This document shows positions 3,039-21,876 of a stretch of 64,000 nucleotides of DNA, piece by piece; within the stretch, counting starts at the first letter, position 1; every line of letters starts with the position of its first letter. The notes under the pieces are model-generated. The model saw only the letters and a program-made list of their open reading frames with translations, did not search any database and was not told where the DNA came from. The stretch comes from Escherichia coli (GTDB lineage Bacteria; Pseudomonadota; Gammaproteobacteria; Enterobacterales; Enterobacteriaceae): assembly GCF_050920415.1 (NCBI RefSeq), contig NZ_CP169309.1; one strand, written 5' to 3'. The position numbers and the translations under genes are program-made.

Positions 3039-3988
3039 CCGTGTTCTCCCACGCTTTTTTGCTGATGCTTGTGGAACCACATTATCGGCACAATTAGCAG
3101 CAACAACATGATGATCGCCACTGCCGAGGCCACCGGCCAGTCACGGTTGTTAAAGAACTCCTGCCACAGCACGCGTCCGATCATGATGCTATCCGGACCG
3201 CCGAGCAGCTCCGGGATTACAAACTCGCCCACAGCCGGGATAAACACCAGCATCGATCCGGCAATAATCCCGCCTTTGGTCAGCGGCACGATCACAGTAA
3301 AGAACGTTTTCAGCGGTCGTGCACCGAGATCCAGTGCCGCTTCCACCAGCGAATAATCAATACGAATCAACGCGGTATAAATCGGCAGCACCATAAACGG
3401 CACGTAGGCGTAAACAATGCCAATATAAACGGCCAGGTTGGTATGCAGAATGGTCAGCGGCTGGTCGATAACCCCCAGCCACAGCAGAAAATTATTCAGC
3501 ACGCCGTTATTTTTTAATATTCCCATCCAGGCATAAACGCGGATCAGAAACGAGGTCCACGACGGCAGGATCACCAGCAGCAATAAGATATTGCGGGTCG
3601 AAGGCTTACTGTGCGCCACCGCCCACGCCAGCGGATAGCCGATCAGTAAACAACAAATTGTCGAAATCGCCGCTACCTGTAACGACTGGAGATATGCATC
3701 GAAATAGAGCGGATCGTCAGTCAGTTGCAGGAAATTACCAAGATTGAGGGTGATGGAAAGTTGCCCGTCAGCCCACTCCATCAGTTCGGTATAAGGTGGA
3801 ATAGCGCGCGCCATCTCCGCCAGACTTATTTTAAAGACGATCAGAAATGGCAGCAGAAACAGCAAGATCAACCAGATATACGGCAACGCAATGACCAGTT
3901 TGCGCCCATGCTTCATTTGCAGCTGCGACAACCACAGCTTAAATCCGCCCGGCGGTTTCGACTGGGCAGCAGGTTCAAGTGTACTCAT
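3035..3988 (-). CDS. potH: Putrescine ABC transporter permease PotH
   Basis: 317-aa multi-TM ORF matching recalled PotH; operon context. Confidence 0.94.
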   Translation of the reverse strand: MSTLEPAAQSKPPGGFKLWLSQLQMKHGRKLVIALPYIWLILLFLLPFLIVFKISLAEMARAIPPYTELMEWADGQLSITLNLGNFLQLTDDPLYFDAYLQSLQVAAISTICCLLIGYPLAWAVAHSKPSTRNILLLLVILPSWTSFLIRVYAWMGILKNNGVLNNFLLWLGVIDQPLTILHTNLAVYIGIVYAYVPFMVLPIYTALIRIDYSLVEAALDLGARPLKTFFTVIVPLTKGGIIAGSMLVFIPAVGEFVIPELLGGPDSIMIGRVLWQEFFNNRDWPVASAVAIIMLLLLIVPIMWFHKHQQKSVGEHG

Positions 3989-19397: not shown

Positions 19398-19643
19398 AAA
19401 TGCCACCCGAGTATCCATTCAAAAAAAATACGTTATATCGCCGTATGATAAGTTCGGTGATTAATAACGCACACACAAACTTAAAGAAACCGTAAGTTGG
19501 TAAAGTTTTTAAAGTTTATGCAATATCCTGCCGCTTCGCTGCTTCTGCCGTCATTTTTTTGCCAGCTGTTGCTTAAAAGTTAACTTTACTTCACCATCAA
19601 AGTCCTGTTCAGCCTGTGGCTGCCTGTCGGAAAAGGGGTAAGT

Positions 19644-20270
19644 ATGATTACGCTGTGGGGTCGGAATAATTCAACCAACGTAAAAAAAGTATTGCTGACG
19701 CTCGAAGAACTGGAACTACCTTATGAGCAAATTCTCGCGGGCCGTGAGTTTGGGGTAAACCACGATGCTGATTTTCTGGCGATGAACCCTAACGGGCTGG
19801 TGCCGTTGTTGCGTGACGACGAAAGTGATCTCATCCTTTGGGAATCAAATGCCATTGTCCGCTATCTGGCGGCACAGTATGGGCAAAACCGCCTGTGGAT
19901 CGACTCACCGGCACGCCGTGCAGAAGCGGAAAAATGGATGGACTGGGCAAACCAGACGCTCAGTAATGCCCATCGCGGGATCCTGATGGGATTGGTCAGA
20001 ACCCCCCCCGAAGAGCGCGATCAGGCCGCCATTGATGCCAGTTGCAAAGAGTGCGACGCCCTGTTTGCCCTGCTCGATGCGGAACTGGCAAAAGTAAAAT
20101 GGTTCTCTGGCGACGAGTTTGGTGTGGGCGATATCGCCATCGCACCGTTCATCTACAATTTGTTTAATGTTGGCCTGACCTGGACACCGCGTCCAAATCT
20201 GCAACGCTGGTATCAGCAACTCACTGAACGCCCCGCAGTGCGCAAAGTGGTGATGATCCCCGTGAGCTAA
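19644..20270 (+). CDS. gstB: Glutathione S-transferase GstB (YliJ)
   Basis: 208-aa [16 protein letters not shown] matching recalled GstB. Confidence 0.93.
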
Positions 20271-21382
20271 TTGCGTGAACTAACTTTGAGTAATTCCCCA
20301 CTGGACTCGTCGGTGAGAACGTATAAATAACCGTCGGGTCCAGTGCGAACATCACGAATTCGTTGCCCTCTGTCCGTTAAAATACGGCCATCTTCTGTCA
20401 CTTCGTCGCCGTTGACGCTCATCACAATGACATCTTTATCTTTCAGAGCGCCAATAAATAATTTTTGCTGCCACTGGGGGAATTTGTCGCTGTTATAGAA
20501 GGTCATACCGCTCACGGCAGGCGAATCTTTCCAGTAAAAAACAGGTTGCTCAGTCCCGGTGACGATCTCCCCTTTCGCTTCCGGTATCTTAAATCCCGAA
20601 TAGTTGATTCCCCAGGTTGCCAGCGGCCAGCCGTAGTTTTTGCCTTTTTGCGGCATATTAATTTCATCACCACCGCGGGGGCCATGTTCATTTAGCCACA
20701 GTGCATTACTCCACGGATTCATCGCCATTCCTTGCGGGTTACGAATACCATAAGACCAGATCTCGGCGCGCGCACCGGATCTCCTGGCAAAAGGATTATC
20801 ATCCGGGATCTCGCCCTGGTCAGTAAGACGCACCAGTTTGCCCTGTAATTTATCCAGATCCTGCGCCGTCGGGCGCTGATTGTTTTCGCCCAGAGCAATA
20901 AAAAGATAACCTTTACCGTCGAATACCAGCCGCCCGCCAAAATGGTTGCCGGTAGACAGTTTTGGCATCTGGCGAAAGACGGTGCGGAAGTCGGTCACTT
21001 TTGAGAGATCATCACTTAAGCGGCCATAACCCACAGCAGTTCCGGCTTTGCCATCATCGCCAACTTCGGAATAACTTAACCAGATGCGGCGCGACTGGGC
21101 AAAATCAGGCGCTAAAACCACGTCCAGCAGACCGCCCTGCCCGTGCGCCCAAACGTCCGGCACTCCGGAAAGCGGCGCAGATAATCCTTTTCCTGCTTGC
21201 CAGTGACGCAACTCGCCGCCGCGCAGAGTGATTAACATACCGTGATTATCGGGTAAAAAGGCCAGCGCCCAAGGGTGATCGAGTTTGTCTTGCAGTACTT
21301 CGACATTTACCGTTGCAGGAGCTGCCCAGAGAGCAGAAGAAAGACAGATAAGGGGCACAAGGAAAAAGGATTGTCTCTGCAT
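20267..21382 (-). CDS. yliI: Soluble PQQ-dependent aldose sugar dehydrogenase YliI
   Basis: 371-aa ORF with signal peptide; matches recalled YliI; its stop overlaps the gstB stop on the opposite strand. Confidence 0.93.
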
Positions 21383-21454
21383 AACGCCTCCAGATTGACT
21401 CTGGCTTAAAGCGTAGTCAGTGGAGGAGATAACAAATTCATTTTTACAAAAACT

Positions 21455-21490
21455 TAAACATGAAGGGGGAGACGCTTTCTCCCCCTTAGT
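21455..21490 (-). terminator. Putative terminator downstream of bssR
   Basis: Hairpin AAGGGGGAGACGCTTTCTCCCCCTT with a T-rich tail on the minus strand. Confidence 0.45.
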
Positions 21491-21492
21491 TT

Positions 21493-21876
21493 TCAGGCCT
21501 TCTCAAGCATGGCGTGCTTCTGCAGGCTCTGGATACTCAGCGTTAAGCTCATCAGACAATTTTCAAGCTTATCGGCGTTGACGGTAATAACAGTCGGGCA
21601 ATCATGGTGCCCACTCATCAAACATACTGCGGCTGTCGCTAATGCTTCTTCAGCATGATGAAGAGCACTCCACTCTTCCTGATCCAGATGAAGATTCAAC
21701 CGCAGCGATTTATCGTGCAGTTCGCGATTCAGTTTAAAAAAGTTATCTCGTAGATGATTGCTTTCGCTGACGGACATGTATCCTTTTGCCTTCCTCAGTT
21801 GCACGTATGCAGCGAGGTCAACGCGTGCGTCGATCAACCGGTTCAGCAGATCGATTCGCTGTCTGTCAACGAACAT
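21493..21876 (-). CDS. bssR: Biofilm regulator BssR (YliH)
   Basis: Internal start MFVDRQRIDLL gives 127 aa matching recalled BssR. Confidence 0.9.
   Translation of the reverse strand: MFVDRQRIDLLNRLIDARVDLAAYVQLRKAKGYMSVSESNHLRDNFFKLNRELHDKSLRLNLHLDQEEWSALHHAEEALATAAVCLMSGHHDCPTVITVNADKLENCLMSLTLSIQSLQKHAMLEKA

Follow-up and report, generated by a model that had tools for sequence, protein, structure and literature searches.

The mRNA of gstB, the glutathione S-transferase gene that converges on yliI in Escherichia coli, probably ends by Rho-dependent termination antisense to yliI followed by trimming to a protective stem-loop at positions 20299–20345, with all of the signals lying within the last codons of yliI. 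Positions refer to the window, that is, the whole stretch of 64,000 nucleotides that was analysed (Table 1). The coding sequences of the two genes overlap at their stop codons, and this overlap is minor in itself: it is annotated in the reference genome, its class was described in 2007, and the pair has already been listed as transcriptionally overlapping. The locus rather illustrates how convergent genes packed without intergenic space carry the 3′-end signals of one gene inside the coding sequence of the other.

Table 1. Features at the gstB–yliI junction, in window coordinates.
Feature	Position	Strand	Basis
gstB coding sequence (glutathione S-transferase GstB, 208 aa), stop TAA at 20268–20270	19644–20270	+	ORF list; RefSeq
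yliI coding sequence (PQQ-dependent aldose sugar dehydrogenase YliI, 371 aa), stop TAG seen as CTA at 20267–20269	20267–21382	−	ORF list; RefSeq
CTAA, the 4-nt tail-to-tail overlap of the coding sequences, with T20268 and A20269 common to both stops	20267–20270		Direct reading
Stem-loop, 15 bp, arms 20299–20314 and 20330–20345, 15-nt loop	20299–20345	+ (gstB-sense)	Inverted repeat; RNA fold
Unstructured C-rich, G-poor tract, candidate rut region	20346–20470	+ (gstB-sense; antisense to yliI)	GC skew; fold scan
Most significant point of the bicyclomycin-sensitive (Rho) region antisense to yliI, corresponding to K-12 879406 (−)	20718	+	Adams et al. 2021

The gstB–yliI junction

Both reading frames are real genes, as they are annotated by RefSeq in two genomes and have orthologs across dozens of genera. 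GstB has matches to GST-family NCBIfam models, all of them under the curated cut-offs, and YliI has a match to the glucose/sorbosone PQQ-dehydrogenase family, also under the curated cut-off. The locus was found in 5424 of the 5426 complete E. coli genomes. At the junction the window reads ccgtgagCTAAttgcgtgaa (20260–20279; ...ccgtgagCTAAttgcg... at 20260–20275). The original prediction had placed the overlap at 20267–20270 with the stops TAA for gstB and TAG for yliI, in agreement with the sequence and the ORF list. Its statement that the stops overlap by 3 nt was a miscount, as the stops share 2 nt (20268–20269) and the coding sequences overlap by 4 nt. The identical 4-nt overlap is annotated by RefSeq in the 100%-identical E. 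coli strain MFDS1022581. In K-12 MG1655, where RefSeq gives yliI at 878742..879857 (+) and gstB at 879854..880480 (−), the overlap and the tetramer CTAA are again the same. The window is reversed relative to K-12, with a gapless alignment around the junction, and K-12 coordinates are obtained as 900124 minus the window position.

The window represents an E. coli lineage that is uncommon: over 2.2 kb (19400–21600), an identity of 99% or more to it is reached by only 2 of 5424 complete genomes, the others being ∼97% identical, and its YliI differs from that of K-12 at several residues (e.g., H2Q, and IKESGV to ARRSGA). Two strains carry rare rearrangements of the locus. In STK78-E, the match begins only at window position 20291 and the gstB side is missing there; in ET210, the yliI region is split into two aligned pieces and carries no annotation beyond "PQQ-dependent sugar dehydrogenase".

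The CTAA junction is a plain member of the class of 4-nt tail-to-tail overlaps with interlocked stops, which is common, incidental and already known. Such interlocking arises because C or T, followed by TA and then by A or G, gives a stop codon on both strands. The 4-nt sequences CTAA, TTAA, CTAG, and TTAG have been held responsible for the jump at length 4 among convergent overlaps, in a survey of 58 genomes with 1890 convergent overlaps, 1218 of them at least 5 nt long (Lillo and Krakauer, 2007, PMC2174442). We see no difference between the described 4-bp overlaps and the junction studied here, which has exactly one of these tetramers and joins two real, conserved, opposite-strand genes. The same survey has 58 convergent overlaps for E. 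coli, and its authors favoured an origin by stop-codon mutation; this model fits the gstB–yliI pair, as the length of the YliI tail differs among genera.

Stop-to-stop spacing in other species

We compared the stop-to-stop spacing over 80 gstB loci from other species (80 genomes, 69–99% identity of the gstB orthologs), in 57 of which a yliI ortholog adjoins gstB. A gap of −4, again with CTAA as the tetramer, is seen in Escherichia species, Salmonella arizonae, Citrobacter koseri, and one MAG. The stops adjoin directly (gap 0, e.g., TGATTA) in most Enterobacter, Lelliottia, and Trabulsiella, whereas the gap amounts to +1 to +5 in Leclercia, Klebsiella, and the C. freundii group, to +8 to +20 (+8/9 and +16 to +20) in a few other loci, and to +65 to +68 in the three species of Citrobacter with an inserted GC-rich hairpin. 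Hence in most Enterobacteriaceae the gap lies between −4 and +20 nt, the exact overlap varying and the tight packing being kept. The YliI tail past the conserved ...LLKVS is variable as well, from 0 to 4 residues.

From this comparison, the exact overlap reads as accidental and lineage-specific, set by the position at which the first in-frame stop happens to fall, the overlap itself being unselected. The non-conserved C-terminal tail of YliI would simply be read to the first in-frame stop, which in Escherichia would be the complement of the bases around the gstB TAA. The tight spacing, in turn, is ancestral in Enterobacteriaceae. As the close spacing is conserved, most Enterobacteriaceae have no room for an intergenic terminator, and in E. 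coli, where the stops are interlocked, the original prediction was right in noting the absence of such space.

The three exceptional Citrobacter loci (sp. NCU1, R56, and Awk 4; L011, L014, and L016, at ∼3628–3695) have a spacer of 65–68 nt with a strong hairpin, e.g., GCGGGTTGGTCTGTGAGCCACAGGCTAACCCGC, that is not followed by a U-tract. In C. amalonaticus ku-bf3 (L012) and Superficieibacter electus (L053), the stops are 1277 and 2527 nt apart, respectively, and something has been inserted between the genes.

Transcription across the junction

Since the coding sequences overlap, a complete mRNA of either gene contains bases of its partner. Complete mRNAs ending ahead of the partner gene, the outcome named in the original prediction as contrary to it, are geometrically impossible. 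The claim that transcription of each gene runs into the other is borne out both by this geometry and by published overlapping transcripts: yliI–gstB is among the 165 convergent pairs with transcript overlap in half or more of 58 MG1655 RNA-seq samples (ExcludonFinder, NAR 2025, PMC12288877, Table 1). Such a listing is nearly automatic once both genes are expressed, because the coding sequences overlap.

Up to 340 nt from the junction, a consensus scan found no intrinsic terminator on either strand, nor one on the interval 20270–20718. We also found no T-run on either side of the stem at 20299–20345. An intrinsic (Rho-independent) terminator at the junction was therefore rejected, there being no terminator-like site on either strand and no U-run after the stem.

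Published data point to Rho instead. A Rho termination region is listed at K-12 879406 (−), on the gstB-sense strand, and is classed as antisense to yliI (Adams et al., 2021, Supplementary file 2). Its Rho score is 3.76 (p = 1.4e-6), and the upstream/downstream read counts, which are low, are 86/16 in untreated cells and 190/133 with bicyclomycin (Adams et al., 2021). The corresponding window position lies ∼450 nt beyond the gstB stop, inside yliI, at a coarse resolution, as the method uses 800-nt windows. A simple consensus scan of the plus strand between 20270 and 20718 found no promoter-like site, which makes read-through from gstB the simplest source of the Rho-terminated antisense transcripts.

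The original prediction held that this convergent arrangement allows antisense interference. In its strong form, this would be a selected excludon, in which convergent transcription and a 3′ dsRNA make the expression of gstB and yliI mutually exclusive; we consider this improbable. The pair is named in the E. coli excludome list and, like the other convergent excludons there, consists of convergent genes with overlapping transcripts; as a group, excludons overlap with RNase III targets and show near-exclusive expression in single cells (PMC12288877). In addition, gstB-strand transcription reaches several hundred nucleotides antisense to yliI (Adams et al., 2021). However, the gstB–yliI overlap differs in that it follows from the geometry of the coding sequences alone. 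Moreover, the exact overlap is not conserved among genera, the antisense transcript is curtailed by Rho, and inside gstB the yliI-sense strand carries no structure or signal under selection. In the literature, we found no pair-specific evidence of gstB–yliI interference, opposite regulation, or RNase III processing.

Antisense interference between the two genes may occur, and it would probably be limited by Rho: with Rho termination and the 3′-end signals both inside yliI, the antisense reach would be limited. If true, this advises caution against calling every convergent overlap regulatory interference, because Rho limits how far the antisense transcripts reach. The original reading thus stands as regards run-through into the partner gene, apart from its 3-nt count; what it had left out is that the signals for termination and for the 3′ end may sit inside the partner coding sequence, as appears to hold for gstB.

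At the other end of yliI, we observed a GC-rich hairpin at 21465–21485 (GGGGGAGACGCTTTCTCCCCC), in the gap that separates the yliI start (21382) from the stop of bssR (21493), with T-rich runs next to it on both strands. In appearance it resembles a bidirectional intrinsic terminator by which bssR would be ended just upstream of yliI.

A stem-loop inside the last codons of yliI

The stem-loop starts 28 nt beyond the gstB stop, within the yliI codons for T-G-P-D-G...T-D-E-S-S, a highly conserved YliI motif. On the gstB-sense strand it folds with ∼−27 to −30 kcal/mol, and folding of the two strands gave −24 and −27 kcal/mol. The bases following the stem are CGAACATCACGAATTC, with no U-tract.

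In order to separate RNA structure from protein conservation, we used a null model in which the peptide is fixed and synonymous codons are resampled. Under this model, none of the 180 windows across both genes deviated as strongly as the hairpin window (z = −4.1), which also had the lowest MFE. Among orthologs, synonymous recoding gave ∼−11 to −13 kcal/mol, compared with the observed −20 to −33 kcal/mol. On the gstB-sense strand, z ranged from −2.4 to −5.6 in Escherichia, Salmonella, most Citrobacter, Klebsiella, Trabulsiella, and Pseudescherichia. In Enterobacter, Lelliottia, Leclercia, Silvania, Huaxiibacter, and Superficieibacter, z was ∼0, and the hairpin is absent despite an equally tight junction. 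A sliding scan of the yliI 3′ region in the 33 hairpin-bearing species, a group set by genus post hoc, after the fold energies had been seen, produced a single sharp peak at 20291–20350 (mean MFE −23.9, mean z −3.4).

The alignment of the hairpin-bearing genera agrees with the fold, as 90.8% of its cells are standard-paired in the stem register, versus at most 50% in any slid register. Double-sided changes in the stem numbered 14, versus 4.5 in shuffles, none of 500 shuffles reaching 14, and slid registers had none. The alternative forms of the stem are CACTGG/CCAGTG in E. coli, CGTCGG/CCGACG in Citrobacter, Trabulsiella, and others, and CGTTGG/CCAACG in Klebsiella, and these compensatory changes alter YliI residues in step (T...S, V...D, and V...N, respectively). 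The covariation is limited to three adjacent pairs and, judging by the alignment, probably reflects two to three events. RNAalifold restricted to the hairpin-bearing genera recovered the stem.

It could be argued that the hairpin has no function and is a by-product of the conserved propeller motif, which starts with R followed by 16 residues, and of inherited codon choice, termination being diffuse and unprogrammed. The stem arms indeed encode a nearly invariant peptide, and 11 of the 15 stem pairs have no double-sided change. Twenty-four Enterobacter-type species share the gene layout but lack the hairpin, RNAalifold did not recover the stem from all 60 ortholog sequences, and a search of 19400–21600 yielded no Rfam match at E ≤ 1. 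Still, the recoding experiment, in which the peptide is fixed, does not reproduce the observed energies, and no other of the 180 windows is as extreme. Common descent by itself would hardly account for a hairpin kept by Klebsiella as well as Escherichia, given that synonymous divergence is expected to be near saturation at 74–77% YliI identity. Furthermore, the amino acid changes in the arms are exactly complementary as nucleotides, and the hairpin decays in two of the three Citrobacter that have gained an intergenic one. Overall, we regard a functionless hairpin as rather unlikely, and prefer to read it as part of the gstB 3′ end.

Several other candidate signals were discarded. The excess of G·U wobbles, which might have indicated the functional strand, shrinks from 55 vs. 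22 to 24 vs. 22 once one codon-forced U·G pair is removed. A second structured window at 20474–20536 (+), with the MFE of −21.4 and z of −3.5 here, has z of ∼−0.1 to −0.2 in the hairpin-bearing genera, and is ascribed to chance or is lineage-specific. A mirror-image yliI hairpin inside the gstB 3′ end was rejected, as no excess structure is seen there in the Escherichia-type group (z from −0.1 to −0.7), with a weak signal in the Enterobacter-type group. In the Enterobacter-type species, we found no clear substitute hairpin, the weak signal at the equivalents of 20435–20542 having z of −1.2 to −1.5.

The predicted gstB 3′ end

The stem is followed by a tract that is rich in C and poor in G. In the window, the GC skew is −0.22 to −0.32 at 20325–20474, and across orthologs it reaches −0.35 to −0.38. 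The tract contains 35–37% C and 15–16% G, the strongest skew in the 600 nt scanned, in both the hairpin-bearing and the Enterobacter-type species. In the 33 hairpin-bearing species, positions 20351–20470 are also unusually unstructured (mean MFE −6 to −10 kcal/mol, z from +0.7 to +1.0). The composition may be a by-product of YliI amino acids and codons.

This arrangement resembles one described for Rho-dependent transcripts, whose steady-state 3′ ends lie just past protective stem-loops that lack U-tracts and have the rut site directly downstream (Dar and Sorek, 2018, PMC6061677). The gstB element shares with it a stable U-tract-less stem-loop soon after the stop codon, an unstructured C-rich tract next to it, and published bicyclomycin-sensitive read-through on the same strand (Adams et al., 2021). 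It differs in that it lies wholly inside the coding sequence of a convergent gene and shares its bases with YliI codons, and in that the 3′ end is predicted here.

By analogy, the tract after the stem-loop would serve as a Rho loading site, and the gstB transcript would be terminated by Rho within a few hundred nucleotides downstream. The 3′-to-5′ exonucleases would then trim it back to the stem-loop, leaving the mature end of the gstB mRNA at ∼20346–20350, and the stem-loop would shield the mRNA from further decay. We infer that the transcripts ended by Rho originate from the gstB promoter, and that the hairpin both marks the 3′ end and stabilises the mRNA. The placement of these signals on the antisense strand of the last yliI codons would be explained by the lack of room for an intergenic terminator in most Enterobacteriaceae. 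The Term-seq tables of Adams et al. (2021) contain no 3′ end within K-12 8796xx–8801xx, which could be explained by low expression.

Termination-related hairpins inside partner genes have precedents, as intrinsic terminators lie inside the partner coding sequence in 23 of 116 E. coli genes with such convergent overlaps (Lillo and Krakauer, 2007, PMC2174442). The gstB stem is likewise located in the partner coding sequence, but lacks a U-tract on both strands, and no terminator near the junction came out of the consensus scan. The embedded stem-loop probably adds a new case to a known type of 3′-end element, notable for sharing its bases with a conserved protein motif.

One might also take the stem-loop for a bidirectional terminator of the collision type (Ju et al., 2019; Wang et al., 2022), which would set the place where RNA polymerases collide head-on and would terminate both transcripts independently of Rho. 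The genes are convergent, and the U-tract-less stem can fold on both strands. However, on the yliI strand the stem lies 29–78 nt upstream of the stop, and ending there would yield a non-stop yliI mRNA. Besides, the gstB-strand read-through is bicyclomycin-sensitive, whereas the class is described as Rho-independent. This makes a collision-type terminator highly improbable at this locus.

Possible dual coding in the yliI 3′ end

If the stem-loop does protect the gstB mRNA, the last 25 codons of yliI could be dual-coding, with a conserved strand of the YliI propeller encoded in one direction and the stabilising 3′ stem-loop of the gstB mRNA in the other. RNA pairing would then have steered substitutions in YliI, and this constraint would have been released in the three Citrobacter with an intergenic hairpin. 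We give this extended interpretation an even chance. Under it, the joint changes of T...S, V...D, and V...N follow from their codons being reverse complements of each other (ACT/AGT, GTC/GAC, and GTT/AAC, respectively). In the three spacer-bearing Citrobacter, the hairpin inside the coding sequence is weakened, with the group mean z of ∼0, one of the three still having −2.1. If true, the stem-loop embedded in yliI would offer a clean and testable instance of protein evolution being constrained by an antisense RNA structure.

The search for orthologs yielded two further observations. Eight loci of Halomonas/Vreelandella (L051, L062, L069, L071, L072, L074, L078, and L079) encode GstB homologs that are 70–73% identical to that of E. 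coli, as close as those of Klebsiella, and have no adjoining yliI; these Halomonadaceae homologs may result from horizontal transfer. Finally, contig NODE_2 of "Chryseobacterium sp. 18061" (L077) carries a gstB–yliI junction of the Enterobacteriaceae type, with 72% and 79% identity, the gap of +3, and the hairpin present, and is probably from a contaminated or mislabelled assembly.
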